Of a DNA stretch of 64,000 bases, positions 20,178 through 62,040 are shown one piece after another (within the stretch, counting starts at the first letter, position 1; each line of letters starts with the position of its first letter). Source of the stretch: Candidatus Micrarchaeota archaeon (lineage in GTDB: Archaea > Micrarchaeota > Micrarchaeia > Norongarragalinales > Norongarragalinaceae); assembly GCA_016207165.1 (NCBI GenBank), contig JACQQD010000008.1:64001-128000 (forward strand), read 5' to 3'. Under the pieces are notes generated by a model that was given only the letters and a program-made list of their open reading frames with translations, ran no database searches and was not told the origin of the DNA. The translations under genes were made by a program, and so were the position numbers.

Positions 20178-20178
20178 C

Positions 20179-20222
20179 TAGCAAACCCCGCCTATTCGTC
20201 GTGAAATTTGCGGGGTTTGCTA
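20179..20222. repeat. Dispersed hairpin repeat, copy D (inverted relative to C)
   Basis: Perfect 13-bp stem TAGCAAACCCCGC/GCGGGGTTTGCTA; loop reverse complement AAATTTCACGACGAATAG; supplies the vapC stop codon. Confidence 0.8.
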
Positions 20223-35005: not shown

Positions 35006-35042
35006 AGTCCTGGTTTTGGATGACGGGGTTGGACGGGTTTTC

Positions 35043-35070
35043 GGATTTCGCTGACGAGCACGGCTTGCCG
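35043..35070 (+). repeat. 28-bp direct repeat, orphan copy of the giant gene's 5' end
   Basis: GGATTTCGCTGACGAGCACGGCTTGCCG is identical to 36593-36620; follows an in-frame ATG at 35020 (MTGLDGFSDFADEHGLP). Confidence 0.9.
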
Positions 35071-36314: not shown

Positions 36315-36572
36315 CTTTCTAATTTTAAGCACCTTAGTATATAAATATTTCGATAATAGTCGAAAGATTTAATTTTCCTGTTTTTTTTCGTCAAAAGTGG
36401 TCTCAGCGGGCCGGATGCGTGACCGTCAACATGCCGTGGGAGGTGCCGTGTTGGTGATGTTGGACCGAATGCTTGCCAAAGACGCGAAGCTCCACGTGGA
36501 TCTTCTTTTGCTGGATTCTGAGTTAGACGGCTGGCTAACGCCTTTTTATCCGTTTGACGCCTTCTTTTTGCA

Positions 36573-42500: not shown

Positions 42501-45500
42501 TGCCAACTCATCAAAGACCAGGAGCAATTCCAGGATTTGGCGACTTTTTCGGTGAACTACGACGCCGAAGAACTGGCGAAACTCGGTGACTTCAACCCCG
42601 AGGGATTGTTCTACAAGAATACGGGCCATTACCGGTACTTTGCCGTAATCAACAACGAGGAAAACCCCATTGAATTAAGCAAAATCTCCGGCGACGGCGC
42701 GGGACTGGTTTCATGCCAAATCCTTGACTCCAGCGGCCAGGTTTTGGCCGGGTTGCAGGTGGGCCACCGCATCAACCCCGGCGACGTGCGCATCGTGAAA
42801 TGCACGTCGGTTAAACCGGGGGCGGGGTCCATGATTTTGGACTTTTCCGGCGCCGCCTTTGCCAGGACCAAGACCGTGCACGTGGAAGTTTTCCAGCCTG
42901 ACTCGTCCGTCTCCAAATTGTATCAAGCGTCCCCCATCGGCCAAGTCTTTCCCTTCTTCTCGCCCAAGGACTCGTCGCTTGCCGAGAAAGCCAAGGTCTT
43001 GCAGCAAGCCGGTTCTGAAAAGTTGGAGTTCGCCGAGCAACAACCGCTGTTGGGCCAGGCGTCACCCACTCCAACTTCCATTCCCTCCCCTTCCCCAGCG
43101 CCCCAGACAGACGAAGAGAAAAAGAAACAAAAGGAAGAATTGGCTGCCGCCATCCAGAACGTCCGCGACTTTAGGTTCTGCAAGTCGTACTTCTGCACCT
43201 TCAGCCGGGGCCAGGAAGCCCTGTACTCGTTTGCCGACGCGTTCCAGAAAATCGTGAAACAAAAAACCGATGGCGAAGGTGGAGCGCCCACCATTCAGTC
43301 GCTTTCCAAGTTCTGTGACTCGCTTCAAGGCCTCTCCACGTACCGCAAATCCATGGTGCTCCAGTTGGCCAACGTTCAGTTGACCGGCGACGAGTCCTCC
43401 AGCGCCGTTTCGTCCCTTCGCAACGAAATCCAGGCGCAAGTCTTCGGCGGCGACGTGTCCACCGTGGAAATCAAGGCATCGGATGGAAGCGACGTTTTGT
43501 TCAAAGGCTGCGGAATCTACCAAGTCGAAGCCGTATTGAACCCCATGTGCGGCTCCGGGGCCGCCACTCCGGAGGCTTGGAAGAAATCCATGCGCGTGGA
43601 GTTCCGCGTCAACAAAATCGTTTCCTGTGAAGAGAATTTGGCCAACGCCGCACTGCTTACAGCTCAGGATGACGGCGGCATGTCGGCGTACACCGGCAAC
43701 CAACTCGGCCACGGCGTGGTCAACGCCATCCGCTCCGCCTTCTCGCGAAAAACCTTTTCCGCTTTGGCGGCCATTCCCCAAGCCGCGTTCAACGACAAGT
43801 CCGAAAGCCGGCTGAAAGACGTGTTGGAAAGCGTGGGCCGCGTGCGGCAAGGCGTACTCGGCCAATACGGCGTGGAGACGAATGAGAAAGACGAGGCTAC
43901 AGTCAAAGCGCTTTACCACGCGCTTTACAACGTGAACGTGCAAGAAAAGAAAGTCAAGTTGTGTCCCCGCCTTGGAAGCGGCTTGGCGTACACGGCGTGC
44001 CCCGCGAAACCCTACGAGGACGCAGGATTCTGCTGGCGCACCGGTTTTGGCGCTTACTCCACCATTCTAGGCACGTCGGTGGCCTTGTTTGCCGCGCAAA
44101 CCGCGTACGTGGCCAGCGGCGCAGGCGGCGCCGTGGCGCCTCTGGCTTGGTCGCGCGCCATTGCCAGCAATTACCGCCTCATTTCCGCGTACTCGGGTTG
44201 CTTGGCTGGCGCTGGGGCGGAAGTCTTCCAAGGACGCTCGGCCGCCTCATGCCGCGCGCTGGATGTCTGCACGGGGTCTGTGTTGTCTGGCATCGTGGAA
44301 ACCGGCATGCCGTTCTTCGGAAATTGGCGGCTTTTGAGGCCCCAAATCCAGGCCGCACAGGCCTCATCCCAGCTGTCGGCTGGGTCATCCGCCGTGGCGT
44401 CCTTCTTCCTGGAAGGATTGCTGGGCGCCGGAGTTTTGGCTGGACTGGAGGAAGCCGCTGGCTTGCAGGAGGCGCCGCCGGTGCCGGCCATGCCTGTGAC
44501 GTTCATCGTCCGCCAATTTGCTTCGCCAACAGCGTTGGAGCGGGAACTGGGTGCCACGCGCCGGTTCGTCTTCAACATGGCGCCGTATGCCCAAGTGCGT
44601 GGCTCGCCGGCGCACCGCCGCGCGCAAGTGGAACTTTTGAACCGGCAACTCGAAGCACAAGGCATCTACAACCGGCGCGCGTCGGCCGACGCCATCCGTG
44701 CGTTGTACGATGCAGGCGGTGGCGACGTACGTGGCGCGTTCCAGAACAGCCGATTGGTTCGCGCCCTGGCGGCCATGGATGACGGGCAAGTCAACCATTT
44801 GCGTGATTTGCTTGAGGCAGGGGGTCCGGGTCCAGTCCAGGAGCAGGAGATTCTCAATTACTTGGCAGAGTCATTCATCGACAGCAACCCGCAGAACGCG
44901 GTGTACACCCGAAACCAGATCATCCAAGGTCTGGGTTTGACTACGCCGGATGCCACCGGACGTCATGCGCGGCTCGCAGAGTTCATTCGAGATCTTCCGT
45001 TTTCCTCTCAGCACAATTTGTTCACGCGTCCAGGACTGAATTCGTACTTTACGAGAACTCAGTTGTCCAGTGAAGCCAGTCTACGCACTGCACTGGCGGG
45101 CAACGACGCCCGACTTTTCGGCCGTGACGCACCTTTTGCAAGGCAATTGTTGACTGAATTGACGTCGGAGGGTTCCGATGCGTTGCTTCCGTTGCCCCGT
45201 TCCGCTCGCGCGTCTCCTTGGTTTTTTGGCGTTCGCCCAATTGATCTCATGGATTTGGAGTCGCGCATTCCATTCCACGATCCGGCGGCACCAACCAACC
45301 GGTTCACTGCCGTGCAGTACAACACGTTTTTGAACGCATTGGGTGTGCCTCCGGGAGCGGCGCCAAGGGACGTGGCTACATCCATTTACACGGAGTTCCA
45401 GCGAGGCCGCATTCAATTGACCCAAATTGATCAAGCGCTGGCCGCTGCTGGCCAGGATCCGCTACCGAACGGCTTTGGCGGTCTTCGTTCACTACTTCAC

Positions 45501-46403
45501 CGCGACCTGCGGACGCTTCAAGGTCCCTCGTTCCAAGGCCTAGACGACGGCGTCGAACGCTTCCGGCGGCTCTTCCAGATGCACCAAGTCAACGACATTA
45601 CTGGCGCCCACACTTCAATCCGCCCCACTCAGTTCGCCGATCTGACGCCCGACGAACTCAAGGCGGCAAGGCAATTGTTGGAGGCCGAACGCCACATGCG
45701 CATCTTCCGCGGCGTGTCGTTCGTCACCGCTTTCCTAACCAGCTTTTTGTTCAACACGGATTTCCGGCCGGTGCAAGTGGAAGTGGATGCCGGTCGCGAC
45801 GGCCACGTCATTGCCTTGCACGCCGAAGACGGAAAATACACGGCGGAAAGCATTTGCGTGAAAGGCATCGCGGGTTCCACCAGCTTGGATTGCAAGCCCC
45901 CGGCATCCAACGTGCTGTCGCCGCAACAGCTTTGCGGTTCTTCCCCGTTGTGCATGCGTCTCTTGAAGTGGTCCAACGGCAAGGTGACGTCGTACGCGTT
46001 GGTGGTCGGCTTTAATGATGCCGCTCCAACTGATCCCGAGTACTTGAATTCCTTGTTCATTCCCAAAGAAAAGCCGGTGAACAAACCCTACATGACGTCG
46101 GCCAGAGTCCAGTTTGACCCCATTTCTGCCGCCGGCTTTTCCCAGTATCAGGCGGACGTGACTGACCCCAAGACGGCCACCCGCACCGCCCAAATCGAGG
46201 TGGCAAAAGCCATCATTTCCGACATGAACGACCAAAATTCCAGGGCCGCGTTCCCGGCGGACAAGCGTGACGCCGTCAAGAAACTCGCACAGGACGCCAT
46301 CAACGCCTTCAAGCTAGAGCACGACACCACGGGTTCAGCGCTTCTGGCCAAAGCCCAGCAAGCCGAGACCGCGCTTCGCGCCGGCACCACGGAGGGACGC
46401 TGA
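36573..46403 (+). CDS. Giant membrane-anchored surface protein (3276 aa): beta repeats, cupredoxin-like domain, Ig-like domains, Cys module, hydrophobic segments and a variable C-terminal insert
   Basis: Uninterrupted 9.8-kb ORF; E.KGIPS plus TM start shared with two paralogues. Confidence 0.88.
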   Translation: MVFDSFLDFADEHGLPFRSWAEALEEKGIPSFVLLLIPILVLGAAAFVLLSQAPSTGTVKIYAQSQDGQVLEGVSVSLVGPNGFKKEVATNAGGLAAFSDVPAGTIRVQAFSSQVVLKEPAFDVVVKAGQVATGTVFSEVSTRQSVVLTVDVRNAAEATIRVFDSKDGLVDMASGVTSNPFAVAPENTYRVVAESDGFLPAEQDVTVARDAVFVELILQEKDKPTQSQVHVNVFQQGLEEVPVENASVRIVSGDQVLAVRESSQDGSIVPVGVPLGANVTVLVSKEGFAEGVRNFNASRLEEVVVVELQKGVAATAGVTIRVRDSAGNPVFSPIVRLFEKGLLKEDVFASDGVAQFDVSSLSDLSAEVYKSGFLPKRVESLQRDNAVVLERASANNSGRVRVLVLDRNGLEVSGAAVQLLSEGQKPLGIPPRLSGTDGEQVFDDVPLGLAVAQAVLGPRVAQSSPVLVVPLNQSNETRATVQFEPVAVDVPVRVTDKFSSSPIRGAKVVVADGSCTTAADGACLLKSLESDDAVLSATANGFESFESAAFSVYPGMQVVPVELVSASVARDVKLSFDGVFDSAGRKVNFLDPVTSYEARYTIFQPNVSFSKAEAFISIQGGAVLLGGQSQKARVTKGGQNDFQEQFASQEVAITPEGLFPATVDVPAGGQVVFSNEDNATHVLAFDDGQSLSLNPGDKRSLAFNAVGSFGFKSLRSETLSGFVTVTEQAVFEVDDASSVLFEYPSFNGSKQLTVRFKTSREGDVVLSHRSAFFTPVEALRDPLEGVKQSGSLSIRFQGTCAENLCVQHYFEFGGRTHRELELPLGEPAELVFNVVGLEKPGEIRLDASPGLVLLSGRTETSSLQIRSNESSTIRIPAGRSEVRIQFEARRLAEDASIGFAVASDNAVLFEGDAFLHVFAKTQPALVVSVRPSKVLALEQSAVTFSVKDGFGEPVSDALVVLGDAEANPSSQVGQYVVESLQPESLQPVSFEVRKEGFKVFRGSLSVEAPDFVLEVSPSLVSLSVDSREKQSAPVQVTNLLGDALRLAVSVNVESGGELTDVDVSTSSLRLKGHESGSFDVLASLKEEVMQVARRSGALTEDVRGIVRIRSTAKGFSDAQEVRFQVQATQSQQSLDDVWLLSPDSLSYSLEPPRTKAESQEVTVSNNGPYPLVFNVEQTLGGLSVQPASLVIPSNQEDVFTVRASTPNELNCFSDDVQRQGAMTVYASFQGITSKKTAQINVDVLTSSLVCAPPNGYRVTLPVDARMMFQSVVKTKVNPDGSTAVLLPGGQLMWFESGASVTPVEAQVPPSTGFMLDRSLVQPLPEGGWTVRFPVQVVLSIPDDADRQPFGGGQTIITIENAQIILPPGVQSALPQLTRQASNEVVIPPLSPVTFRRVPFNYDAYANLLPADSVEVHLPADAVLDLPAGTVERKLPKQASTYDYLSSRQSTENLYNIKAIQLPGGERLAFGDQAAILINPSSLQNNPSQVRLPADAALFVSRHRVAQVENRDVSEAFTLTMPVPYSLTVQGEPVPFQTEGGLWGLKVNEKATVEASWKPSVTKTSSQNVVRVVRENSLTYLSGASARIPVDPASLAKCSFSYEHEQSVSFLIPQGASLSKKAGRYEVVLPRCDETSKLTFHVSDSALGTADVLETPAIRKITFPDSAEVLGDLSASEEKQVTVKGTIEFVACLKDEQGKDVTETLKTMRVGFNEKSLVSVPERAILGLSKDQREMDFEVLTPVTLKPEGVTSTSLGSTKKMTMERQGRPVTFVGPPDYDRTGIVMEPGSELLFVPVCQKGTGRLDITATAEDVVVREKDKTEKAPLEVTFSNKNFKKSESRELVLINSGTQAVNLDGVSSEADASLDQRYRTYLTSILRTDTDHAFLQSPGVFGQKQKLRLEGRAPSEEPRQHVFVVKLELPDDMVIQNQCIKSEFDGVAMNGAYVFSLTDLNGDAISESQNHRMPVIVRFDAKAEDCQLIKDQEQFQDLATFSVNYDAEELAKLGDFNPEGLFYKNTGHYRYFAVINNEENPIELSKISGDGAGLVSCQILDSSGQVLAGLQVGHRINPGDVRIVKCTSVKPGAGSMILDFSGAAFARTKTVHVEVFQPDSSVSKLYQASPIGQVFPFFSPKDSSLAEKAKVLQQAGSEKLEFAEQQPLLGQASPTPTSIPSPSPAPQTDEEKKKQKEELAAAIQNVRDFRFCKSYFCTFSRGQEALYSFADAFQKIVKQKTDGEGGAPTIQSLSKFCDSLQGLSTYRKSMVLQLANVQLTGDESSSAVSSLRNEIQAQVFGGDVSTVEIKASDGSDVLFKGCGIYQVEAVLNPMCGSGAATPEAWKKSMRVEFRVNKIVSCEENLANAALLTAQDDGGMSAYTGNQLGHGVVNAIRSAFSRKTFSALAAIPQAAFNDKSESRLKDVLESVGRVRQGVLGQYGVETNEKDEATVKALYHALYNVNVQEKKVKLCPRLGSGLAYTACPAKPYEDAGFCWRTGFGAYSTILGTSVALFAAQTAYVASGAGGAVAPLAWSRAIASNYRLISAYSGCLAGAGAEVFQGRSAASCRALDVCTGSVLSGIVETGMPFFGNWRLLRPQIQAAQASSQLSAGSSAVASFFLEGLLGAGVLAGLEEAAGLQEAPPVPAMPVTFIVRQFASPTALERELGATRRFVFNMAPYAQVRGSPAHRRAQVELLNRQLEAQGIYNRRASADAIRALYDAGGGDVRGAFQNSRLVRALAAMDDGQVNHLRDLLEAGGPGPVQEQEILNYLAESFIDSNPQNAVYTRNQIIQGLGLTTPDATGRHARLAEFIRDLPFSSQHNLFTRPGLNSYFTRTQLSSEASLRTALAGNDARLFGRDAPFARQLLTELTSEGSDALLPLPRSARASPWFFGVRPIDLMDLESRIPFHDPAAPTNRFTAVQYNTFLNALGVPPGAAPRDVATSIYTEFQRGRIQLTQIDQALAAAGQDPLPNGFGGLRSLLHRDLRTLQGPSFQGLDDGVERFRRLFQMHQVNDITGAHTSIRPTQFADLTPDELKAARQLLEAERHMRIFRGVSFVTAFLTSFLFNTDFRPVQVEVDAGRDGHVIALHAEDGKYTAESICVKGIAGSTSLDCKPPASNVLSPQQLCGSSPLCMRLLKWSNGKVTSYALVVGFNDAAPTDPEYLNSLFIPKEKPVNKPYMTSARVQFDPISAAGFSQYQADVTDPKTATRTAQIEVAKAIISDMNDQNSRAAFPADKRDAVKKLAQDAINAFKLEHDTTGSALLAKAQQAETALRAGTTEGR
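36593..36620 (+). repeat. 28-bp direct repeat, copy inside the giant gene start
   Basis: Identical to 35043-35070. Confidence 0.9.
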
Positions 46404-46406
46404 AGC

Positions 46407-46970
46407 ATGAACAAGTGGGTTTTGGTGTTGGTTTTGTTGGGCGGCGTTTTGGCGTTGTGGGTGCTTGGCTTCGGCCAGTCGTTGGGGTTCAACGCGTTGA
46501 CGGGGCCTTCAACCAAGCCGCTTTCCCCAGAATCCGTGGCGACGTACGAGCCCTTGACCATCCAATACATCGATTCGGAGCTTGGTTTTTCCGTGCGCCA
46601 CCCCATTGGATACATTGTGGACGCCATTCCCGGCGAACACGTCCACTTTTTCGCTTCAAGCCCATCCGGTTTTTCCGAAGACTACTTGTTCAAGACCACC
46701 AATGAAACGCTTTCGTTCAAAGACCTGCGCGAGATTGCCGTCGAGCTTGAAGCCAAACCCGTTCGCGAAGACCAAGTCAACGTGAACGGAAAAACCGCGT
46801 TGCGCCTGCAAGCCGTCTTGCCTGGAGACGAACTCTTGGAATCCGAGACCCTTGTTTTGGGCGTGATTCCCTGTCCAGGGTATCGACTGTACTTTACCGC
46901 CGTGATTCCCGACTCGCTTTCCGACGACGTGGCGTTGGCCGACTACGTGTTGCAGACCGCCCAATGCTGA
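46407..46970 (+). CDS. Membrane-anchored PsbP/Mog1-like protein
   Basis: N-terminal TM; Y.D.ELGFSVRHP.GY and V.VNG..A motifs; starts 3 nt after the giant gene. Confidence 0.65.
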   Translation: MNKWVLVLVLLGGVLALWVLGFGQSLGFNALTGPSTKPLSPESVATYEPLTIQYIDSELGFSVRHPIGYIVDAIPGEHVHFFASSPSGFSEDYLFKTTNETLSFKDLREIAVELEAKPVREDQVNVNGKTALRLQAVLPGDELLESETLVLGVIPCPGYRLYFTAVIPDSLSDDVALADYVLQTAQC

Positions 46971-47026
46971 CCTCTTTCTTCGTCCCTTGAAAAGGGTATT
47001 TAAGCGGGAAATGCCAGTGTGTTGAC

Positions 47027-48625
47027 ATGTCGGAACACGGTGGCCGTCGTCGGCGTGCTGCAGCCCATCCCGCTGAACCCGAACGCCCACCGGAACGCCC
47101 GCCAGACCCCAATGAACGTGTTGTCATTCGGTTGTCCGATTCTTCGCCCCGTCCAGGTCAAAGCATTCATCAAATGGAACACGAGAAAATCCATAGCTTT
47201 TTTGACGGCATGCCTTTTCTTCTTCCTTGCGGAGTCCAAGGCGGTCAGGGCGTTGTACATGGTCAAGTCGCGTACCGCAAGCTTCCCGGCAGACCCGACT
47301 TGCCCCGTGCTCAAGCCAACCCCATTGAGCGCTCCCATGTGCTGGCCGCTTTGCTTGCAGAACGCATCTACCATCACCCCACCGCAGGCGCTTTCGTAGC
47401 CAGCCAATTAGGGAATGATTGGCATGAGAACATTTCCGAATTAATCAACGTGCTGCGCGGCGAAGCTCACCACGCATTTGCATCCGGCCTGGGTTTGGAC
47501 CATCGTTCGGAATGGCACGACGTGCTAGACTTGATACCCGATGTCGTGAATTTGTGGCCACAAACCCAAGAGCACGGCGGCCGCCCGCCGGGAGGCGGCG
47601 GACCCGGCGGAGGCGATGGAGGGGGCGGTCACCGTTCAGGCGTTCCGCCCATCAACATCAACATCCAAAACAACCCAGTCAACGAATTCAATCCGCAATT
47701 CAATCCCAGCAATTTTGGCAACGCCAGCATTAGTGACGCGAACAAAATCACCGACTCGAACAAAATTCAAGATGCATTGAACCCGCTTTCCAGTGGCCGC
47801 AACCGAATCCGAGTGGAAGGAGGCCGACAACGCCGGCGCAGACGCGATGCGCCTCCGCAAGCCGGACCCCAGCCGCCGGAACAGCAAGTCATTGAACCGC
47901 TCATCGTTGACGCGGACTTCCGCGTCCAGCCGCCCCAACGCCGGGCATTCCCGTTGGACTCAAGACGAGCCGCTCTTCCTTTGCCGCTCCGCGCGTTTCC
48001 AGGTCCTCAACGCGCGTTGCCACTCCAGTCACAAATCGCGTTGCCGGAGTCCACGCCCACCCACGACCACGGCCCCCAACAAGCGCAAGCCATTGACCCC
48101 AATGCCCCGGCGCCCTTGGCGCAACCGCATACGCCGGAACACGAATTTGAACGTCATCTTGGTTCTCTTCTGGCCTACTATGCTCATGTTCCGCATCGGT
48201 CGGCCCGCCTCGACGTTGTCCAACATGTTTGGGGTGATCCTGCCCTGCGCACGTTTCTTCACGAGCGCCCGGTCCCGCCAACTCCGTCAATGACGGACGA
48301 ACGCGTGCGTGAGTATTACCAAAATGTCGTTGGGGTATACCACGCACTGCCTACAAACAGTCCTTTTAAGGAGCAGTTGGGTCGCCGCCTGCTTCACGGT
48401 TTGGTCACGCATGTTTCGCAACAGGAGCAATGGCGGCGGGAAGACTTGACACAACTTTTGCGCCATCACCTCCACGACACGAATCTCGCGCCACACATTC
48501 AAGAGATGAGCGTGCATCGGATGCTGCCGGTTCTGCACATGAACTGGCCCCAATCCCGTGCCTTGGCGCACGACTTGGCCCGATACTTGGTTTGGCTCGG
48601 GTTTAATGGCCCGCTTCCCCGGTGA
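47027..48625 (+). CDS. Hypothetical His/Pro/Arg-rich protein with a long disordered middle
   Basis: 532-aa ORF; TATTTAA about 25 nt upstream; Gly run, Asn-rich stretch and RRA(F/L)PL repeats; no signal peptide. Confidence 0.7.
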   Translation: MSEHGGRRRRAAAHPAEPERPPERPPDPNERVVIRLSDSSPRPGQSIHQMEHEKIHSFFDGMPFLLPCGVQGGQGVVHGQVAYRKLPGRPDLPRAQANPIERSHVLAALLAERIYHHPTAGAFVASQLGNDWHENISELINVLRGEAHHAFASGLGLDHRSEWHDVLDLIPDVVNLWPQTQEHGGRPPGGGGPGGGDGGGGHRSGVPPININIQNNPVNEFNPQFNPSNFGNASISDANKITDSNKIQDALNPLSSGRNRIRVEGGRQRRRRRDAPPQAGPQPPEQQVIEPLIVDADFRVQPPQRRAFPLDSRRAALPLPLRAFPGPQRALPLQSQIALPESTPTHDHGPQQAQAIDPNAPAPLAQPHTPEHEFERHLGSLLAYYAHVPHRSARLDVVQHVWGDPALRTFLHERPVPPTPSMTDERVREYYQNVVGVYHALPTNSPFKEQLGRRLLHGLVTHVSQQEQWRREDLTQLLRHHLHDTNLAPHIQEMSVHRMLPVLHMNWPQSRALAHDLARYLVWLGFNGPLPR

Positions 48626-48631
48626 TTTGTT

Positions 48632-49084
48632 TTGGCCTCTCTTTTGACTTCCTTGAAAAAAGTCGTTTCCGCGTCCAAGAACGATCCGGTTCTGCGCCAG
48701 CGCCTCATCGCGCAAGCCATGTTGTTGGGCCAACTCAAGTACATCAAAAACAAGGTCTCGGCTCCGGCCAACGCGTGGCACGACGCGGACGCCTTCGAGA
48801 AATTCATGTTTTCCGTTTTGAAGCCTTCCCGATTTGCCAAAGGCTGGACCCAGCGCATTCTGCACTCGTTTGTTTTGTCCATGGTCTTGGCGCACGGCGA
48901 CTCCAAGAAACTGCGGGCCAAAGCCGGCGCATTCTTGCAGAAGTTTGACAAGCGGTACCACAAGCTCTCCGCGTTTTTCGCGAAATCCCCAGGGTTCTTC
49001 GCCGCGTACCTTTCGGGGTTGAAGTTCCAGAAAGACGTTGTGACGGTTGGGTTGCTGCGGTGCCTCGCGACGCCGCGTCATTGA
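48632..49084 (+). CDS. Basic alpha-helical hypothetical protein; its 3' end is repeated twice downstream
   Basis: TTG start 6 nt after the upstream stop; the repeat copies conserve this reading frame. Confidence 0.75.
   Translation: MASLLTSLKKVVSASKNDPVLRQRLIAQAMLLGQLKYIKNKVSAPANAWHDADAFEKFMFSVLKPSRFAKGWTQRILHSFVLSMVLAHGDSKKLRAKAGAFLQKFDKRYHKLSAFFAKSPGFFAAYLSGLKFQKDVVTVGLLRCLATPRH
48972..49084 (+). repeat. Gene-3'-end repeat, copy 1 (in use)
   Basis: Encodes FFAKSPGFFAAYLSGLKFQKDVVTVGLLRCLATPRH*. Confidence 0.9.
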
Positions 49085-49092
49085 CTCTTTGG

Positions 49093-49614
49093 CTATTCGT
49101 CTTTCAGGTGCTTTCGGCAAAGGTATTCCAATACACCGTCTTGCCAGCCCCGCGAATCAATCATTCTTAAAATCGCGTCATTGCCTTGGTTTTTTGACCA
49201 CGTGCCTTGCTTGACCAATTCCACGATCACGGCCGCACTAATCACGATGCGGATGCCCTCGGCTTGGGCCAAGCCGTCCAGTCTGTAGCCGGCTTCCACG
49301 TCATCGCATACCAGCAGTGGAATTTTTTCCCGAATGCACAGTGTGAATGCGCTTGCTTCGCCCACGTCCACAAGTCCCGTCACCGACGGCAAAACTCGGA
49401 CGGGGGCCGCATCCATTTTTCCCGACTTGATTAAGGCGAGGATTTTTTTGGCTGCTTGACCGACTCGGTCGTCAAAACCAGCCAATTCCTTGAGCTCGTC
49501 AACCACGGCCCTTGCAATCTTCCAGGAGACGATGGAAAACGAGGGTGTCAGAGCGCCAGCAAGTTCCAGGGAAACCAGGGCCGAAGTGTCCCCCGCCGCT
49601 GTTTTTAGTGCCAT
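49093..49614 (-). CDS. PIN-domain toxin (DUF3368-like)
   Basis: GDTSALV, VVDEL, D.GEASA..L and LVCDD motifs. Confidence 0.85.
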   Translation of the reverse strand: MALKTAAGDTSALVSLELAGALTPSFSIVSWKIARAVVDELKELAGFDDRVGQAAKKILALIKSGKMDAAPVRVLPSVTGLVDVGEASAFTLCIREKIPLLVCDDVEAGYRLDGLAQAEGIRIVISAAVIVELVKQGTWSKNQGNDAILRMIDSRGWQDGVLEYLCRKHLKDE

Positions 49615-49620
49615 GCCGGT

Positions 49621-49914
49621 TTATCCCAAGCCTTGTTCAAACGACTTTTTGGCCGTGGAAACGAAAAAGGCGACTTTACGAGCTTCCTCGTATCCCAGCA
49701 CTCGCACCAAGTCGTCAAAGAGGATTTGGCCTTCCGCAAATTTTTTCGCAACGATTTTCTTCATTTCGTTCAGCGACTGCTCCCGCGCGTAATATTCTTC
49801 GACGGCTTTCCGTACGATGGCCGAACGAACCTGCCGTTTGCCTTTGGCCAATATCTCGAGTTTCTTCTCCGTTTCAGGCTCCACGCGAACGTGAATGACG
49901 GATTCATGCGCCAC
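49621..49914 (-). CDS. RHH/CopG antitoxin
   Basis: IHVRVE.E....L..LA....RSAIVRKAVEEY; SD GGAGGTG before the GTG start. Confidence 0.85.
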   Translation of the reverse strand: MAHESVIHVRVEPETEKKLEILAKGKRQVRSAIVRKAVEEYYAREQSLNEMKKIVAKKFAEGQILFDDLVRVLGYEEARKVAFFVSTAKKSFEQGLG

Positions 49915-49935
49915 GGCAACCCACCTCCACATCCA

Positions 49936-49956
49936 ATGTAATACTTTGTATCACAT
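49936..49956. promoter_or_regulatory. Inverted-repeat operator of the TA operon
   Basis: ATGTAATAC-TTT-GTATCACAT (1 mismatch), next to a TATTAA box. Confidence 0.6.
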
Positions 49957-50017
49957 ATTAATGTTTCGGCGAATTGTCCATCCGAAAAAGGGCTGACAAG
50001 CCACGGCTGGCTTGCCT

Positions 50018-50121
50018 CGTTTTTCGCCAAGTCCCCGGAGTTTTTCGCCGCGTACTTGACGGGGTTGAAGTTCAAGAAAGACGCCGTCACGGCCGGGTTG
50101 CTGCGGTGCGTGGCCCGTTGA
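50018..50121 (+). repeat. Gene-3'-end repeat, copy 2 (orphan)
   Basis: Encodes FFAKSPEFFAAYLTGLKFKKDAVTAGLLRCVAR*. Confidence 0.9.
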
Positions 50122-50251
50122 TTTCCGTCGGCGTCAAGTACCTGTTGGCAATTGCTTTTCGGTTGCTTTGCAGAGGCTTGGAAAACGGCTTAGTCTTTTC
50201 TTCGATCTGTTTTTGCCGTGGTTGCACTGCCAACGCGGTTTGTTTCTTTCC

Positions 50252-50554
50252 CTACTTTCCTTTGAGTAGCCGGGCGAGCGTTTTTTCCTCCTCGTCGTCC
50301 TCTCCGTAAAGCGCTTCGTCAACGCCCGTGTTTCTGAGGGCTTCCAGGACTTGGCGCGTGGAGACGTTGAGGCTCTCCGCAATTTTTCGAATCGAGTATC
50401 CTTTTTTCCGGAGGTCAGCCACGGTTTCATCCAGGAGCGCCTTGAGGAGGTATTGGCGGGCCACATCCACGCGTTTGAGGTAGTTTTGCTTGGCTTTGGC
50501 GTCCAGCACGTCCACGGCTTCCTTGGGCAAGCCCAAGTGAATGTATTTTGTCAT
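50252..50554 (-). CDS. RHH+HTH antitoxin (UPF0175-like)
   Basis: IHLGLP.E....LD and SIRKIAE.LNVS; ATGA overlap with the upstream PIN gene. Confidence 0.8.
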   Translation of the reverse strand: MTKYIHLGLPKEAVDVLDAKAKQNYLKRVDVARQYLLKALLDETVADLRKKGYSIRKIAESLNVSTRQVLEALRNTGVDEALYGEDDEEEKTLARLLKGK

Positions 50555-51027
50555 GATTTGATTCCCTCCAAGTTCTTCAACGCGGTTTCGACTTTTTTTG
50601 TCCTCGGGTACGTGACGGAAAGTTTTTCCAGCCACGCAACCGCCGTCCGTCGTTCCACCACATCTTTTTTCGCCAGAAATTCGATGAATGCCGGCGTGGA
50701 AAGAACGGCGATGTGCCGATTTCTTGCCGCCGCCATCAAAAGCCCGTCGTCGGTGACCAGAACGCATTCCCGTTTGCGTTGCGTGCACGTTTCCAGGAGG
50801 CTTGCATCGACGGGCGAGAGGTTGCGAAACGCGGAATCCGTCTTGGCGGCTTTGCTTTCAAGGATGGCCACGCATTCCGCCATCCTGACGCTTTTGATTT
50901 CGTCTTTCAGGTTGTGTCGCGCCTCGTCCAATACCGCCTGGATGCTGGCGGGGCGGACGATTCCCAGTGCCTGGACGTCAATTTCGGCCATGAACGTGAG
51001 GAACGTTGCATCCGCAACGTACAACAT
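50551..51027 (-). CDS. PIN-domain toxin
   Basis: YVADATFL, VLDE, LSPVDASLL and LVTDD..L motifs. Confidence 0.85.
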   Translation of the reverse strand: MLYVADATFLTFMAEIDVQALGIVRPASIQAVLDEARHNLKDEIKSVRMAECVAILESKAAKTDSAFRNLSPVDASLLETCTQRKRECVLVTDDGLLMAAARNRHIAVLSTPAFIEFLAKKDVVERRTAVAWLEKLSVTYPRTKKVETALKNLEGIKS

Positions 51028-51035
51028 GGCATTTT

Positions 51036-51050
51036 ATTACAATTTGTAAT
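51036..51050. promoter_or_regulatory. Palindromic operator
   Basis: ATTACAA-T-TTGTAAT, 8 nt upstream of the PIN start codon. Confidence 0.6.
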
Positions 51051-51097
51051 TCTTAACCTTTTTGGTTTCCGGTCCTATTACTCCGTTGCGGATTCTT

Positions 51098-51205
51098 TTG
51101 TTCGCCAAGTCCCCGGAGTTCTTCGCCGCGTACCTTTCGGGATTGAAGTTCCAGAAGGACACCGTCACAACCGGGCTTCTGCGTTGCTTGGCTGTGGCCC
51201 GATAG
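51098..51205 (+). repeat. Gene-3'-end repeat, copy 3 (orphan)
   Basis: Encodes LFAKSPEFFAAYLSGLKFQKDTVTTGLLRCLAVAR*. Confidence 0.9.
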
Positions 51206-51298
51206 TTTTCAAGCGTTTTTCTTTGGCTTTTTGTTGCTACTGCGGGGTGTACTCGCGGCCCGCAGTGTTTAAATAACCGGCTTGTTCTACTAAGAGTC

Positions 51299-52735
51299 AT
51301 GGCTTTCAGGGGTCTTTCCCGGCTTCACTGGGTCGTCTTGGCCATTGTTTTCGTTGCTGGCGCCTTATGGTATCTTTCTTCCACTTCTTCCGCTCCGGTC
51401 CGCGATTTAGGCGGTTCTGCCTCTCCAACCCCTTTGGCTGTTTCCGACCAGACGCTTTCCGGAACCCCAACGCGCATTTCGTATGAGGGTTCCACGGTTT
51501 CGCTTGAACGACACGTTTCCGAGGACGGCAAGACGCATACGTCGGTAGTTGAGAATTTGGGTGAGTCCACGGTGAGCGTGGGCATCATCACGGTTGTTCC
51601 CAAGTCGCTGGCTTCCTCGGCTTCGCAACTGGGGCTTTCAAAAGATGTCGACGTTCTGGAGGACGACCCCATCGTTCTTCGCCTCGTTGACTTGGGTTCC
51701 GGTCAGAACGCGGCTCACAGCATTGTTTTGAAGTCAACGGCTGGACGTGACCGGGGCGTGTACCACATTTTTGTTTTGAATGCTAAGATGTGGTTGAACC
51801 AGTACACGGAGCAATTCGCGGAATTGGTGCAATTGCTGAAGACCTTGCCGGACAACGTTTCCAACGATGAGGCGAACCAGGTTTCGGATGCCTTCAGCCG
51901 TATTCTGAACGGAGACGGTGATCCCGCAGCCCGCATTGTTTCTGCGAAAGAGTACTTGGCGTCCAAGTCCACCGGCGCTGTCACGTTTGCGGTGGACGAG
52001 GACCAGCCGTTCGGCGACGTCCAAATGCAATTGTCTATTGACAACCCCGTTTCCTTGTATGCTTTGCCTTTGTCCAATGAGTTCACCTCGGTGCTGGGTT
52101 TGGGTACGCACTTGGGCGTCCGCCAGGGTTATGCTCACGTGCAAGGCCAAGATTCCGCTTTCGGCGGTCTTGAACCTTCCTATTTGCAGGACTACGTCAA
52201 GTTGGTTCAGACTAAGGACGGCGGTTATGCGTTGTTGGCGGACTTGCAGGCTCCGGCGCGCCAATCCCTGCCGGAATTCTCGGTTTCCGGACGCGCGGAA
52301 CTGTTCTTCTCTGGCCGGCCCAACACGGCTATTTTGGTTCCCATTCGCGTGGACTTGCTGCCGGCCGAGCACTTCGGCGACTCCAGCCTAGACACGCCAT
52401 TTGACTTGATTGCGTACGATTGCGGCGACTTGCAAAACGAGTTGGGCATTGCGGAACACGCGCTTTTGACCAAGGCCGCGCAGGTGGACGAAGTCAACGA
52501 CCAACTGCTTTCAGGAGACCAAGTCACGCTGGTTAGTTCCTTGCGCGTGAACTTGGAGCGTTTTGACGGCTTTCCCGAGGAATGCCAAGGCTTGCCGGAG
52601 ATTTTTGAAGGAATTCCGTTCAAGGCCAGAAAAATCAACGTGGTGACTTACTCTTACAAGGAGGGCGAGGCCACGTGGGAGTTGGTGGAAGAAGAACCAC
52701 CTACTTTTCGGGAAATCGAGGTTTCGGATTCATGA
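51299..52735 (+). CDS. Membrane-anchored surface protein, paralogue of 53814-55574
   Basis: TTTAAATA box upstream; N-terminal TM; P.RDLG, VPKSLASSAS.L and DVLEDDP motifs. Confidence 0.82.
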   Translation: MAFRGLSRLHWVVLAIVFVAGALWYLSSTSSAPVRDLGGSASPTPLAVSDQTLSGTPTRISYEGSTVSLERHVSEDGKTHTSVVENLGESTVSVGIITVVPKSLASSASQLGLSKDVDVLEDDPIVLRLVDLGSGQNAAHSIVLKSTAGRDRGVYHIFVLNAKMWLNQYTEQFAELVQLLKTLPDNVSNDEANQVSDAFSRILNGDGDPAARIVSAKEYLASKSTGAVTFAVDEDQPFGDVQMQLSIDNPVSLYALPLSNEFTSVLGLGTHLGVRQGYAHVQGQDSAFGGLEPSYLQDYVKLVQTKDGGYALLADLQAPARQSLPEFSVSGRAELFFSGRPNTAILVPIRVDLLPAEHFGDSSLDTPFDLIAYDCGDLQNELGIAEHALLTKAAQVDEVNDQLLSGDQVTLVSSLRVNLERFDGFPEECQGLPEIFEGIPFKARKINVVTYSYKEGEATWELVEEEPPTFREIEVSDS

Positions 52736-52772
52736 GTATCTTTTGTAACGAGGGGTTTGGAGGTTGTCGGGT

Positions 52773-53657
52773 ATGACTTGGAAAACGTTTGGAGTATTGG
52801 GTTTGGCTGCCGCACTTTTCTTGACGTTGGGAGCCTTTGTCGTAGGCGCGCCGGGAGGGACGCCCGCGGGCGGTCCTGCGACTCCGAAAATTATCTACTG
52901 TGCGTACAAAAGCCAGTCTTGGCTTCTTGACTCCTCTTTGTTGCAGAAGTATCCAGACGCCTGGTTGGTGGCGAACAACTACATTCGCTATCTGATGAAA
53001 GAAGGTGTCATTGCCGACGGTTCGGTGGGCACTTCGACGTCCGGCGGCGTGTACCATAAGGCTGATTACAACCCGGCTTTTGAAAACCTGTATATTGATT
53101 TGTGTTACCGTTCGGGCGTGACTCAAAATAAACTTAGCCTTATTTCCAGTGAGGAATATGCTGAGCGGGCTTTGGCTGACTTGAAGTCCTTTGCCAAGTC
53201 GAACGTTCGGTCGCAAGCGCTTGATGACGCTTTGACGGATTTCCGCGTATGGGTCAACGATAATTTGGGAAAGGCCAAGACCAAAGTGGTTCGGGGGGCG
53301 CGGGATTTCTGGAATGATTGGTTGGATGCCCAAAAGCGGCTTGCCACTGAGACGAACGAGCAGGCTAAGCGCGTGTTGACCTTGGCTGTCCAAGTCAATA
53401 AAGAAATTGGTGCCAACGAGATGCTGTCTGATAAAGAACAAACCGAAAAGAAGACGCGTGTTGTCGTTATTACCGGTTTGATGACTGAACTTATTAAGAG
53501 CAACCCAGGCATCACGGCTTCAGTAAAGGGCAAGTCGGACAAAGAAATCAAGGACATTTTCTACCGATATTTGCGGGATGAATCGGCCCCGGTAGATTCT
53601 GAAACCGTAAAGTCGCAGTTGCTCGCCCGTCTTACGGGCGGCCTAGTAGCGACTTAG
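52773..53657 (+). CDS. Secreted alpha-helical hypothetical protein
   Basis: SD GGAGG; signal peptide; lower GC than its flanks. Confidence 0.78.
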   Translation: MTWKTFGVLGLAAALFLTLGAFVVGAPGGTPAGGPATPKIIYCAYKSQSWLLDSSLLQKYPDAWLVANNYIRYLMKEGVIADGSVGTSTSGGVYHKADYNPAFENLYIDLCYRSGVTQNKLSLISSEEYAERALADLKSFAKSNVRSQALDDALTDFRVWVNDNLGKAKTKVVRGARDFWNDWLDAQKRLATETNEQAKRVLTLAVQVNKEIGANEMLSDKEQTEKKTRVVVITGLMTELIKSNPGITASVKGKSDKEIKDIFYRYLRDESAPVDSETVKSQLLARLTGGLVAT

Positions 53658-53659
53658 CC

Positions 53660-53692
53660 TTTTCTTTCTTTTTTTCTTTTTCCTTCTTTTTC
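53660..53692 (+). terminator. Archaeal-type poly-pyrimidine terminator
   Basis: About 33-nt T/C-only tract directly after the stop codon. Confidence 0.6.
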
Positions 53693-53813
53693 TGATTGGG
53701 TGCGAGCGTAGGCTTTGACTGGTTTCGGTTTGGGGGTTTGAACGGCAGTGGGGGGCGGGAATGCTTGCCGCGTTTGGAACTGTTTTTATTCAGGTTGCGC
53801 CTACTTTTAGCAC

Positions 53814-55574
53814 ATGTCGGACGCCTCTTTTTCGGTTGCATCGGACGGCGAAAAACCGTCGTTGCCGTTAATTGGTTTGGCGGTGTTGGTGGTGTTGGCT
53901 GGCGCCGTAATCTTTTTGTCGCAAAATTCCACCACCCCGTTTCGTGACTTGGGTTCTCCGGCGCCCCCGCAAGCCGCTTCGGTTTCTGGCGTTGTTTCTT
54001 CCACGGAGTCTTTTTCGCTTTCCGGTGCCCAAGTCCGAGTCGATTCCGAGGTCTTCGTGGTTGGCGAACGCATGACGGAAAAAGTGGCTCTTGAAAGTTC
54101 CAGTGCTTGGACGGGTTACTTCGTGGAAGTGATTCCCAAAGAGTTTGCGGCTTCGGCTTCAAAATTGGATTTGAATGGATATTCGGACGTCCAAGTTCTG
54201 GAGGATGACCCCGTGATTGCCGTTCCCATCGTGCTTTCGCCTGGTAGCCCGGTTTCGTTGTCGAAAACCGGTTCCAGCACCAATCTCCGCTTGCTTCACT
54301 TCCTGGTTTCGGACGACGCGCTGTCGTCGGATGCGTCCGAGCGGAAAGAACAGCTCAGGCAAATTGCGGCGGCGTTTGGCGCGTTGGACTTCGAGCAGTT
54401 GCTGGTGTTCACCGGAAGTGACATTGAGGCGTTTCAAGGGGATGTTTCGGGTTTGTTGAGCGATTCGTCGAAGACTTTTCCGGAGCGCGTGGCCGCGTTG
54501 AAAGGGAAAGTCTCGGCGCAGACGTCGTCGGAGAACGTGGAAGCTGCTTTGAAGAGAAGCGAGAACAAGATTTACTTGGAACTCAATCCGTATGCGCCTT
54601 CTTCGACGTACCGGTTGCCCGTGGTTTCGACGCGAGGCTCTGTCGAATTGACCCGCAATGCGTTTGCGCCTTTGTTGAAAGTGTCTGGGTTGGACGTGCC
54701 CCGGCTTGAGACGAACGTCGGTTTTTCCCAAAGCGTTGAGACCGATCCGTGGCTTGTCGAGGTGGCCGTCGACGCGTCTCGGGTTGAAACTTCAGGGGGC
54801 AAACTGGTTCTGGACGGCGAGCCATTGATCAACGCATTGGGGTCTTTGGATGTGCAATTCACCCAGGAATTGGACGTCAAGCAAAGCATTCCGTTTTTGG
54901 TTGAGTTCACGCAGCCGCCGGTTGCCGATTACTTGGCGTTTTATGTTCCCGCCATTTATTACGGGTCCACTGACGTGCCCTTCTTGATGAGAAACGACGC
55001 ATCCATGGATTTCCAAGTCAGCGTGTGCGGTCAAGAACAAATTTTGTCTGCTGAAACTTGGCAAGTTCTTTACGTGTCTCCGGAAAAAATCGACGACTGC
55101 CAAATCACGCAGGGAACGGAAACCCTGGTCTTGGGCGGAAAGACGGGGTTGACGGCGATGCCGGTTCGCGTGGATTTGTCCAAAGAGGATTATTCGCCGG
55201 ATGTCAAGGCGGCTTTGTCTGGGAATGGATACTTGTTCCACCGGTATGCCGTGCCGCTTTCCGAGTCGCCGTCGGATTACTGCTCCAACCGCTTGTGTAC
55301 CTGCGATGCGGCCGTTGAATCGACCAAGAATTTGGTTCTTCGGGCAACGGAATTGAACCGCCTTTACCAGGCAACGCATGCTTCGACTTTGGTGCTTTTG
55401 GATTCGACGGAAGCCGGTTGTGAATACGAATTTTCGGAGGATGGGCGACTTTCGCTTGAACCCGGTCTAAATGTCGTCCAAGCCACTTTTTCCGAATCCA
55501 ATGCGCACGACCAGCCATTCACCGTCGTGGTTTCAACTGAAAAAATAAAGGGCGGGTTCTTCGGGGCGGACTAA
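53814..55574 (+). CDS. Membrane-anchored surface protein with C-terminal Cys module
   Basis: TM; PFRDLG, IPKEFAASAS.L, QVLEDDP and YCSNRLCTC motifs. Confidence 0.82.
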   Translation: MSDASFSVASDGEKPSLPLIGLAVLVVLAGAVIFLSQNSTTPFRDLGSPAPPQAASVSGVVSSTESFSLSGAQVRVDSEVFVVGERMTEKVALESSSAWTGYFVEVIPKEFAASASKLDLNGYSDVQVLEDDPVIAVPIVLSPGSPVSLSKTGSSTNLRLLHFLVSDDALSSDASERKEQLRQIAAAFGALDFEQLLVFTGSDIEAFQGDVSGLLSDSSKTFPERVAALKGKVSAQTSSENVEAALKRSENKIYLELNPYAPSSTYRLPVVSTRGSVELTRNAFAPLLKVSGLDVPRLETNVGFSQSVETDPWLVEVAVDASRVETSGGKLVLDGEPLINALGSLDVQFTQELDVKQSIPFLVEFTQPPVADYLAFYVPAIYYGSTDVPFLMRNDASMDFQVSVCGQEQILSAETWQVLYVSPEKIDDCQITQGTETLVLGGKTGLTAMPVRVDLSKEDYSPDVKAALSGNGYLFHRYAVPLSESPSDYCSNRLCTCDAAVESTKNLVLRATELNRLYQATHASTLVLLDSTEAGCEYEFSEDGRLSLEPGLNVVQATFSESNAHDQPFTVVVSTEKIKGGFFGAD

Positions 55575-61290: not shown

Positions 61291-62040
61291 TCATTTCGGC
61301 ATTTTCTGGATGGCGAGGCGGGCGGCGTCATCAAAATCCACGGGGTTGGGGCTCAAGGCGTTCATTTCCGTTTTCCAGATTTTTTCGGTTTGCCGTACGC
61401 GTTTTTGGAATTCATTGGCGTTGAAGGTTTTTTCGTAGTACGTCAGTTTGCCGTTGACGAGTTCTTTGTCGGGGACGGCGTTTCTTCGTAAAAGAAAGTA
61501 GAGGTCGTACAGGTCGCGGGCGGATTGGCGGGTGAGGATGGCGCGGATTTTTTCGGCGGCGATTTCCGTTGCGTCCATGGTCTTGAGTGCGTAGGGGAAC
61601 ACGTCGGGATACGGCGGTTGAATGCTGGTGATGACGGGTTCCAGACGCGTTTTTTCGCGTAGGCTGAATTCAAGTTGCACCGTGCATTCGCTGATGGGTT
61701 TTCCCATGTAAAGCGGGCCGCGGACGCGCAGTTTGGCGGTTTTCGAAACGGGGGTTTGACTGGTTTTCCACGTGGGTTCGGAAAAGCCCGCTGAAGCCAA
61801 AAACGCGGAGGCATTATCTGCGTCGGGTTGTTCTTCCTGGTCCGCCAGCGTAAAGTCCAAGTCCTCGGAGTAGCGGGGAAGCTGGAAGGCTTTCTGGAGG
61901 CAGGTGCCTCCCTTGAAGACGCCGGCAAACCCGGTGCGCGACAAGTACGACAAAAGCCAGTGCTGGACGTAGTCTTTCTCTTTTTGGCCTAATGTGAATC
62001 CCGGCGGCCCGTATTGGTCGAGTCCTTTCCGGTCAAGCAT
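61291..62040 (-). CDS. abiEii: AbiEii nucleotidyltransferase toxin
   Basis: EKDY, FKGGTCL, RYSEDLDF and AEKI.A...R...RDLYD motifs. Confidence 0.92.
   Translation of the reverse strand: MLDRKGLDQYGPPGFTLGQKEKDYVQHWLLSYLSRTGFAGVFKGGTCLQKAFQLPRYSEDLDFTLADQEEQPDADNASAFLASAGFSEPTWKTSQTPVSKTAKLRVRGPLYMGKPISECTVQLEFSLREKTRLEPVITSIQPPYPDVFPYALKTMDATEIAAEKIRAILTRQSARDLYDLYFLLRRNAVPDKELVNGKLTYYEKTFNANEFQKRVRQTEKIWKTEMNALSPNPVDFDDAARLAIQKMPK

Follow-up and report, generated by a model that had tools for sequence, protein, structure and literature searches.

Stacked toxin–antitoxin cassettes between copies of a gene's 3′ end in a Micrarchaeota genome: a probable accretion array of integrase-less mini-elements

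In Escherichia coli, the prophage-like element e14 and phage 21 integrate into icd and carry an alternative icd 3′ end, and integron arrays consist of cassettes of about 1 kb with repeats of about 100 nucleotides (nt), toxin–antitoxin (TA) cargo stabilizing the chromosomal arrays. In streptococci, cis-mobilizable elements (CIMEs) and accretion arrays occupy the 3′ ends of fda, rpsI, rpmG and rplL (PMC7563491); 14 of 68 archaeal integrative elements lie in protein genes, and the smallest of the 68 is 2.6 kb long and equipped with an integrase (2019, PMC6563490); and Furuta, Abe and Kobayashi described the insertion of restriction–modification (RM) units with long target duplication (2010, PMC2853133). 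Integrative elements at protein-gene 3′ ends, tandem accretion and integrase-less CIMEs are thus already known in principle. Here we describe a locus that combines such features in an archaeon, with TA-only units of about 1 kb and long coding repeats. It lies in a 64,000-nt stretch (the window; C8:64001–128000) of the genome of Candidatus Micrarchaeota archaeon (GCA_016207165.1; G000), a 1.27-Mb assembly of 12 contigs that is 90% complete and has the archaeal markers fibrillarin (E 1.4e-72), an S-layer family match and GatA/GatB. Within it, three copies of the 3′ end of a gene for a 150-amino-acid (aa) hypothetical protein alternate with two unrelated TA operons. We interpret the locus as probably an accretion array in which two mini-elements without an integrase occupy the 3′ end of this lineage-specific gene. 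A literature search found no account of archaeal TA mini-cassettes bounded by gene-end repeats, which is not proof of absence.

A repeat search of the locus returned one family of three direct copies of 105 nt, at 48964–49068 (reference), 50010–50114 (82% identity) and 51088–51192 (73%), whose starts lie 1046 and 1078 nt apart (Table 1). An earlier reading of the same DNA, made from its letters and open reading frames (ORFs) and called here the sequence-only reading, had described the order as gene end, antisense TA operon, gene-end copy, different antisense TA operon and gene-end copy, and both the repeat search and the ORF list bore this out; its spacing of 1046 nt was exact, and its second spacing, put at about 1080, was corrected to 1078 nt. 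It had also stated rightly that the copies begin at the same codon, stay in frame and end in stops of their own: the common in-frame starting codon of the F/L-F-A-K motif stands at 48974, 50020 and 51098, and the tails vary, reading ...CLATPRH, ...CVAR and ...CLAVAR before the stop. The ORF of the target gene is intact and is closed by the proximal copy. Upstream of the shared starting codon, copies 2 and 3 show no further homology to the target gene, and beyond the stops there is a weak second similarity block at variable distance. When the gene end was compared with the whole genome, eight matches were obtained, of which three were significant (self 1.8e-58, 7.6e-24 and 1.3e-17) and the other five had E ≥ 0.87; the genome self-BLAST gave E values of 1e-20, 3.5e-14 and 1e-20. 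Because only three adjacent places in the genome match significantly, the repeat is local and goes far beyond what chance would give. For the 150-aa protein, searches of Pfam and NCBIfam gave no family; a natural orthologue (P0008) of 151 aa shares 83% identity with it.

Table 1 Features of the stacked array and of further gene-end and tRNA-end repeats in the same genome
Feature	Position	Strand	Description
Target gene	48632..49084	+	150-aa hypothetical protein; last ~35 codons form the repeated unit
Copy 1, gene end in use	48964..49084	+	Core homology from the F-F-A-K codon at 48974; stop 49082-49084
Cassette 1 toxin	49093..49614	-	173-aa predicted PIN-fold protein, DUF3368-type
Cassette 1 antitoxin candidate	49621..49932	-	103-aa predicted ribbon-helix-helix protein, upstream of the PIN gene
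Cassette 1 non-coding right end	49933..50009		Upstream of the ribbon-helix-helix gene; presumed promoter/operator region
Copy 2, displaced allele	50010..50121	+	In frame; stop 50119-50121; tail 2 codons shorter
Cassette 2 partner	50252..50554	-	100 aa, ribbon-helix-helix-like N-terminus and helix-turn-helix; downstream of the PIN-like gene
Cassette 2 toxin candidate	50551..51027	-	158-aa predicted PIN-fold protein
Candidate operator	51036..51050		Perfect 7+7 palindrome, 9 nt upstream of the cassette 2 start codon
Copy 3, distal displaced allele	51088..51205	+	In frame; stop 51203-51205
Giant gene 5′ end, in window	35029-35070 and 36579-36620		Repeat 42 nt, 90%; antisense two-gene unit
Fibrillarin 3′ end			Repeat 50 nt, 90%; cargo HicB-HicA
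274-aa gene 3′ end			Repeat 33 nt; cargo antisense PIN_2 pair
Class-II aminoacyl-tRNA synthetase 3′ end	G000:C2:16017-17660 (L027)		Three copies; AAA_14/DUF4143 ATPase; one unit nearly empty
tRNA 3′ end, outside window	G000:C8:163780-168046 (L029)		Three copies, conserved ~100-120-nt arms; MazE/PIN_3 and Fic
ndk 5′ end			Repeat 40 nt; cargo small ORF

This anatomy of stacked TA cassettes between gene-end copies is confirmed by read-derived contigs. Logan contigs of four groundwater runs, all from one study and one of them possibly the source of the assembly, were available; such contigs drop rare variants and hence say nothing about rare forms. Contigs of three further runs bridge two junctions with no differences, one (X3, 48236–49896) running from the gene through copy 1 into the first TA operon, and two (X2, 49171–50648; X4, 49863–50196) from the first TA operon through copy 2 into the second. 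The array is therefore not an assembly chimera, the outcome that the sequence-only reading had named as fatal to itself. The bridging contigs speak equally against the notion that the locus is an assembly artefact or goes back to a tandem trio of paralogues of the 150-aa gene that lost all but their ends to overwriting. Elsewhere in the genome, tandem paralogues do have C-termini in common (C6:175.9–181.3, C9:137.3–138.4 and C11:95.4–96.1 kb), but the homology of copies 2 and 3 sets in at one shared codon, with none before it, and we consider an origin of this sort scarcely credible.

Each unit between the copies is a minus-strand operon of two genes that runs antisense to the target gene and contains only two sensible ORFs of at least 60 aa, one for a PIN protein and one for a ribbon-helix-helix (RHH) or helix-turn-helix (HTH) protein. 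The packing is tight, with 8 nt between the stop of the target gene and that of the PIN gene and spacers of about 65–130 nt elsewhere, so that the earlier description of compact TA units of about 1 kb holds. The cargo of cassette 1 and that of cassette 2 are unrelated by BLASTP (E 16 and 0.098), and the array is therefore not a duplicated unit. Each toxin was detected in one of the 60 related genomes compared (E 5.3e-4 and 3.1e-9).

Our own Pfam and NCBIfam scans of both toxin candidates gave no match, and their assignment comes from other comparisons. For the 173-aa protein of cassette 1, a precomputed PF11848 label is attached to it and to its four database relatives, and its neighbours in a protein atlas are DUF3368/PIN proteins. 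Its AlphaFold (AF2) model, built from a five-sequence alignment, reached a predicted local distance difference test score (pLDDT) of 92.5 and yielded four PIN/VapC matches at E ≤ 1e-3 (from 4e-4) in Foldseek, nearly all matches listed being PIN domains; the acidic residues D9, E40/E43, D104 and D105 are invariant. Its 103-aa neighbour has profile matches that all lie below cut-off (RHH_1, E 0.0029; NCBIfam RHH-type, 3.9e-5 and 0.0021) and shows 55% identity over 67 aa (E 3e-28) with the protein paired with a related PIN protein in L021, which like L024 is a metagenome contig encoding a relative of the cassette 1 toxin; the RHH–PIN pair recurs in L022 and L024 as well. The 158-aa protein of cassette 2 has 29 representatives at E ≤ 1e-3, with PF01850 (PIN) in 5 of 26 aligned members, and an AF2 model with a pLDDT of 95.3, whose best Foldseek matches are PIN domains with E from 2.6e-3 to 0.09 and a probability of about 1.0, none falling below 1e-3; D74, D93 and D94 are invariant. 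Its 100-aa partner matches HTH_7 (1.4e-4), HTH_38 and HTH_23 below cut-off, shows weak BrnA/VapB-type NCBIfam matches, and shows 43% identity (E 2e-19) with the protein that accompanies the related gene in one relative (G057). Judged by sequence and modelled fold, both modules are thus predicted type II TA pairs, in which a PIN toxin and a small RHH or RHH–HTH partner are kept together.

The operons appear to carry putative promoters of their own. In the region upstream of the RHH gene, a repeat tool reported only a 7-nt hairpin (49997–50014), and an imperfect palindrome around 49942–49960 was recognized by eye; an 8+8 palindrome related to that of cassette 2 precedes the L021 homologue of cassette 1. 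Self-regulation of the operons, which the sequence-only reading had asserted, is plausible from these palindromes. A role of the PIN or RHH proteins themselves as mobility factors was considered and dropped, because the cargo differs between sites (HicBA, Fic, ATPase).

Among the 60 relatives, the sole detectable orthologue of the target protein is encoded by a genome of the same genus (G001; 36–37% identity, E 3e-25), where its upstream neighbour is also conserved (E 8e-39). There a convergent gene follows within about 100 nt of the gene end, and the downstream region shows no TA genes and no repeat, its best nucleotide match being 11 nt long (E 0.19). The sequence-only reading had proposed a search for arrays with other numbers of units in related genomes and reads; the empty site of the relative supports its interpretation, and the contigs of the four runs all show one form.

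The same design recurs elsewhere. A sliding self-comparison of the genome gave 39 matches, which were inspected and annotated, and repeats of gene ends or tRNA ends around unrelated cargo were found at several of them (Table 1), which supports the cassette interpretation of the sequence-only reading. In the aminoacyl-tRNA synthetase (aaRS) array, the first displaced copy lies about 13 nt past the stop and forms an almost empty unit resembling a microCIME, the second lies behind the gene for the AAA_14/DUF4143 ATPase, and the displaced copies have a common left flank that is absent from the gene. At L029, a tRNA-like gene, overlooked by ARAGORN and recognized by eye, is followed by two integrase-less units with common left arms of about 120 nt and right arms of about 100 nt; their cargo differs, comprising a 342-aa ORF with MazE/PIN_3 in one and a 198-aa ORF with Fic/DOC in the other, and a displaced 124-nt Fic 3′ end is present too. 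Within the window, the first ~14 codons of a giant gene for 3276 aa (start at 36573) are duplicated 1.5 kb upstream, where the copy has its own ATG and represents a different N-terminal allele; the intervening unit encodes ORFs 35114–35740(-) and 35724–36332(-), with an AbiEii match below cut-off (E 3.6e-4) and a weak winged HTH. This locus is a 5′-end counterpart of the gene-end arrays. In L021, a related RHH–PIN cassette lies between 26-nt perfect repeats, with the stop of the PIN gene directly beside the repeat. Two pairs of gene-end repeats are present in L024. At 4082–4116 and 7427–7461 of that contig, the 3′ end of a minus-strand gene for 344 aa is repeated 3.3 kb away, and the interval, with three TA-like pairs, may represent a similar stack of greater size.

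Across the taxonomic order, 30 HicA loci were fetched, five of which were dropped because their flanks were shorter than 400 nt, and repeats of at least 18 nt within 2.6 kb were scored. Direct repeats flanked 8 of the 25 remaining HicA loci, compared with 0 of 25 fibrillarin control loci of at least 3 kb treated by the same criteria after four shorter ones had been dropped (Fisher P=0.004). Seven positive HicA loci were inspected: two are at tRNA 3′ ends, three at protein-gene 3′ ends, and two have intergenic hairpin-like repeats. The duplicate of the fibrillarin 3′ end was found in 1 of 30 loci, that of G000 alone. No motif common to the different target sites was seen by eye.

Some repeats of the self-comparison were set apart from the design. 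Those at the three sets of tandem paralogues named above are unrelated to it; at G000:C11:94683–96132, three consecutive ORFs (263, 93 and 84 aa) share the ending ...GLPNMVGGC and are paralogues, not insertion scars. The repeats at C6:54.4 kb are internal protein repeats, and these, together with repeats in the uvr-gene region and inside a large ORF of contig C1, are unrelated to the gene-end design.

How the copies diverged bears on whether they are alleles or decaying duplicates. Pairwise, they differ at 17, 21 and 16 of 96 nt, with dN/dS ratios (Nei–Gojobori method, NG86) of 0.16, 0.12 and 0.26, respectively, in keeping with the earlier claim of mostly synonymous, functional-allele-like differences. 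By parsimony, the 24 two-state singleton differences were divided by script into 14 synonymous and 10 nonsynonymous (P=5e-4, the synonymous share expected under neutrality being 0.25); since two of the latter are Leu CTT<->TTG steps, manual reading gives 16:8 (P=2e-5). The branches of copies 1, 2 and 3 have lengths of 11, 6 and 10, that of the functional copy being the longest, and all three lean to synonymous change. Singletons number 10 in copy 1 and 5 in copy 2 (P 1e-4 to 0.02 for assumed rate ratios of 0.25–0.6). A spare duplicate should change faster than the copy in use, and because the opposite is seen, local duplication followed by decay is unlikely. The differences are clustered in blocks (runs test P=0.014), as expected from crossovers or conversion, and P0008 departs from copy 1 where the copies vary too, at positions 7, 22 and 25 and in the tail. 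Ten further gene-end repeat pairs (11 blocks), drawn from G000, its relatives and one metagenome contig, have pooled synonymous and nonsynonymous differences (Sd and Nd) of 24.5 and 16.5 (P=5e-6 against 0.25; 0.033 against 0.43, the expectation for one functional and one neutral copy), and four of these pairs are purely synonymous (14:0). Such coding-type divergence speaks for displaced copies that were still working gene ends, whether of another lineage or of the recipient, at the time of their joining, with non-decay of the spare copy being a lean, not proof, given the small sample.

These data bear directly on an alternative in which a TA cassette, without any element that carries an attachment (att) site, was inserted with a long target duplication, the resident end being duplicated by staggered breaks or repair synthesis and diverging later. 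RM units are reported to have been inserted without mobility genes and with direct repeats of >30 bp that often span the start or stop of the target (PMC2853133), and likewise the repeats here, 22–121 nt long, lie at gene starts and stops around addiction-module cargo with no recombinase in cis. The marks of long duplication, namely repeats of >30 bp, a lack of mobility genes and an empty site with one copy only, are present; some repeats are perfect (those of L021 over 26 nt and two of the aaRS copies over 25 nt), and a simulation of one functional and one neutral copy is not firmly rejected by substitution type (pairwise P 0.11, 0.04 and 0.21). On the other hand, copy 2 has accumulated fewer changes than the functional copy, the synonymous lean extends to all three branches and the pooled further pairs, and the described duplications have variable boundaries (PMC2853133), whereas copies 2 and 3 share their starting codon. 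On balance, we hold insertion with long target duplication to be distinctly unlikely.

We searched for an enzyme and for free forms of the proposed elements. Contig C8, which holds the window, has no match to a tyrosine or serine recombinase, Cas1 or TnpB, in line with the earlier observation that no recombinase is encoded in the window; Cas1 and TnpB are likewise without a match in the whole genome. The sequence-only reading had looked to a co-occurring recombinase, and the genome does encode three of the tyrosine type (PF00589, on C1, C3 and C5) and one of the serine type, all on other contigs, with nothing to tie them to the array. Two integrase-bearing elements whose ends could be located occupy tRNA 3′ ends, at G000:C1:153001–164696 and C3:214–4803, the former containing also a HicA gene and the only serine recombinase of the genome. 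A metagenome scan with the 150-aa protein gave 260 pattern matches, 0 of them confirmed, and a scan of genome contigs with the toxin 1 alignment gave 335, again with 0 confirmed; no complete parent integrative and conjugative element (ICE) or integrative mobilizable element (IME) was found in the metagenome, genome and viral contig scans.

The cassettes could instead be relics of decay, in which two larger integrase-encoding elements inserted in tandem and were deleted down to their addictive TA modules, making them CIMEs in the strict sense. This account shares its integration step with the reading that we prefer and differs only in how the cassettes became small. CIMEs are described as decayed elements of 1.2–13 kb that kept their att sites but no recombination genes, with gene-less microCIMEs of 130–220 bp, standing in tandem at protein-gene 3′ ends (PMC7563491); the aaRS array has a near-empty unit between its copies A and B, the genome is small, and its integrase-bearing C1 element holds TA cargo in the form of HicA. 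However, the cassettes that we read contain no gene fragments or long spacers, their non-coding parts being at most about 130 nt. Here as in L021, the stop of the PIN gene lies right beside the repeat, and trimming so exact at many independent sites is unexpected; moreover, the integrase-bearing elements of this genome use att sites of 14–15 nt and not of about 100 nt. We therefore regard decay as a rather unlikely source of the compact form.

The sequence-only reading had gone further and called the locus an integron-like array. A dedicated platform of that kind, in which cassettes with promoters of their own would be inserted by a recombinase into a coding att site to form an organized adaptive array, would fit the stacking of unrelated cargo at one site, the equal left boundaries, and the three-unit arrays at the aaRS and tRNA ends. 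Yet the contig has no integrase, and six folds (three copies on two strands) compared with shuffled sequences gave no attC-like signal (z 0.79, -0.32, 1.15, 0.92, -0.95 and 0.85). Promoterless, co-oriented cassettes are not seen either, as both operons are antisense and, to judge from their sequence, have upstream regions of their own, one with a perfect palindrome. The arrays reach only two or three units, share no target motif apparent by eye and have the same form in four samples. The integron label fails on all three defining features examined (integrase, attC folding, and promoterless co-oriented cassettes), and a dedicated platform is very improbable; the earlier interpretation as a whole is partly supported.

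In the accretion array that we favour, each element of about 1 kb would consist of a PIN-type TA operon with its upstream region and a homeologous end of the target gene comprising the last ~35 codons, the stop and the few bases that follow. Inside the ~105-nt homology, the element, in circular or some other recombinogenic form, would cross over with the chromosomal gene end, leaving the gene body joined to the element-borne C-terminal allele and pushing the former end behind the cassette; a second, unrelated TA cassette would then have used the same site. The catalyst might be a trans-acting integrase encoded elsewhere in the genome or host homologous recombination (Campbell-type insertion). 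Selection would keep only gene-preserving insertions, so that only gene starts and stops appear as repeats, and addiction by the TA pair is the likely reason why such units persist in a streamlined genome. The recombination event, its order and its enzyme are inferences.

Several observations weigh against this interpretation. In the contigs of the four runs there is no excised form, occupancy variant, joint or circular junction, the last being a form that the sequence-only reading had proposed to look for. G001 is the only empty-site comparator and a distant one, and its downstream synteny differs, which makes the comparison coarse. None of the four recombinases of the genome is linked to these sites, and the att repeats of the C1 and C3 elements are perfect and only 15 and 14 nt long, unlike the long, diverged cassette repeats. 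Among viral contigs, 0 of 137 pattern matches to the toxin 1 alignment were confirmed and a degenerate 33-nt gene-end pattern had 0 matches, so no free form bearing the attP site was found there. The statistics of the copies rest on 96 nt, or 32 codons; besides the weak rejection by substitution type given above, the model of one functional and one decaying copy yields P 0.017–0.096 for the singletons, and gene conversion among the copies could mimic part of the divergence signal. In the HicA survey, kin are not independent and a core-genome locus is a lenient control.

The surroundings of the array offer some further observations. The target gene sits within a block of presumed surface or secreted proteins, in which very large ORFs lie at 20939–25702(-), 26225–32521, 32555–35005, 36573–46403 and 55578–61160 (1587, 2098, 816, 3276 and 1860 aa, in that order), with smaller ORFs without Pfam families beside them (47027–48625, 51299–52735 and 52764–53657). 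A clear AbiEii nucleotidyltransferase toxin gene is located at 61291–62040(-) (E 5.6e-31), for which the genome repeat scan reports no flanking repeat. An Rfam search of window positions 46000–54000 gave 0 matches at E ≤ 0.1. The genome also contains a family of intergenic double-hairpin repeats of about 100–150 nt, with ends like TATAGCAA...TTGCTATA and 87–98% identity between copies, at 20129–20224 of the window and at C8:138340, C8:34516, C9:27414/46793/53700, C7:5927/33178 and C2:27070/33849; it resembles miniature inverted-repeat transposable elements (MITEs) or repetitive extragenic palindromic (REP) elements and is unrelated to the gene-end repeats.

The movement of chromosomal TA modules is poorly documented and the mobile elements of DPANN-type archaea are barely described, and this locus, with its relatives in the genome and the order, provides concrete, testable TA-only units bounded by long coding repeats. 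We put forward, tentatively and with more doubt than confidence, that in this group of small-genome archaea TA modules spread as recombinase-less cassettes of about 1 kb addressed by a homeologous gene or tRNA end, which host recombination or a trans integrase of relaxed specificity would insert by a single crossover. If so, any conserved gene end would be a stackable landing pad, amounting to a gene-capture platform like an integron array without integron machinery, in which C- or N-terminal alleles are swapped as a side effect. If the cassettes do carry an allele of the target end, TA modules would have a minimal route of spread independent of any enzyme encoded by the element, lineages would exchange host gene termini along with the cassettes, and short in-frame gene-end repeats ought to be handled as insertion scars by annotation pipelines. 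Should the cassettes be only relics of decay, the locus would be an archaeal counterpart of bacterial CIMEs, useful but ordinary.

Among known systems, the elements at icd resemble the array in using a coding sequence as att site, in bringing along a gene end whose differences are mostly silent, and in having a displaced pseudo-end at the distal junction; they are, however, full prophage-type elements with their own integrase, present as single units and not as stacked minimal cassettes. Unlike in integrons, which the array resembles in the sizes of its cassettes and repeats and in its TA cargo, no IntI, attI, folded attC or common promoter was found here, and the repeat is the end of a host gene. 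Streptococcal CIMEs (PMC7563491) share att-type direct repeats at a protein-gene 3′ end, a lack of integrase and transfer genes, tandem arrangement, sizes from 1.2 kb and gene-less micro units, but they are bacterial, adjoin ICEs or IMEs that supply the integrase, are held to be deletion products and have mixed cargo, whereas the present array is archaeal and very compact, has no adjacent complete element, carries almost only TA genes and is bounded by diverged coding repeats of about 105 nt. The archaeal integrative elements (PMC6563490) likewise integrate at 3′ ends with an element-supplied end and stop, form arrays at one site, and use tRNA, protein-gene and intergenic targets within one genome; they encode integrases and mostly have att sites of <25 bp, in contrast to the integrase-less units of about 1 kb with repeats of 33–121 nt described here. 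RM insertions, finally, resemble the cassettes as lone addiction modules without mobility genes, flanked by repeats of >30 bp at a gene start or stop with the gene left intact, but in that work the repeat is taken as a duplicate of the resident target with variable boundaries (PMC2853133), whereas the present copies, with TA cargo in an archaeal host, look like separate functional alleles that share a common boundary.

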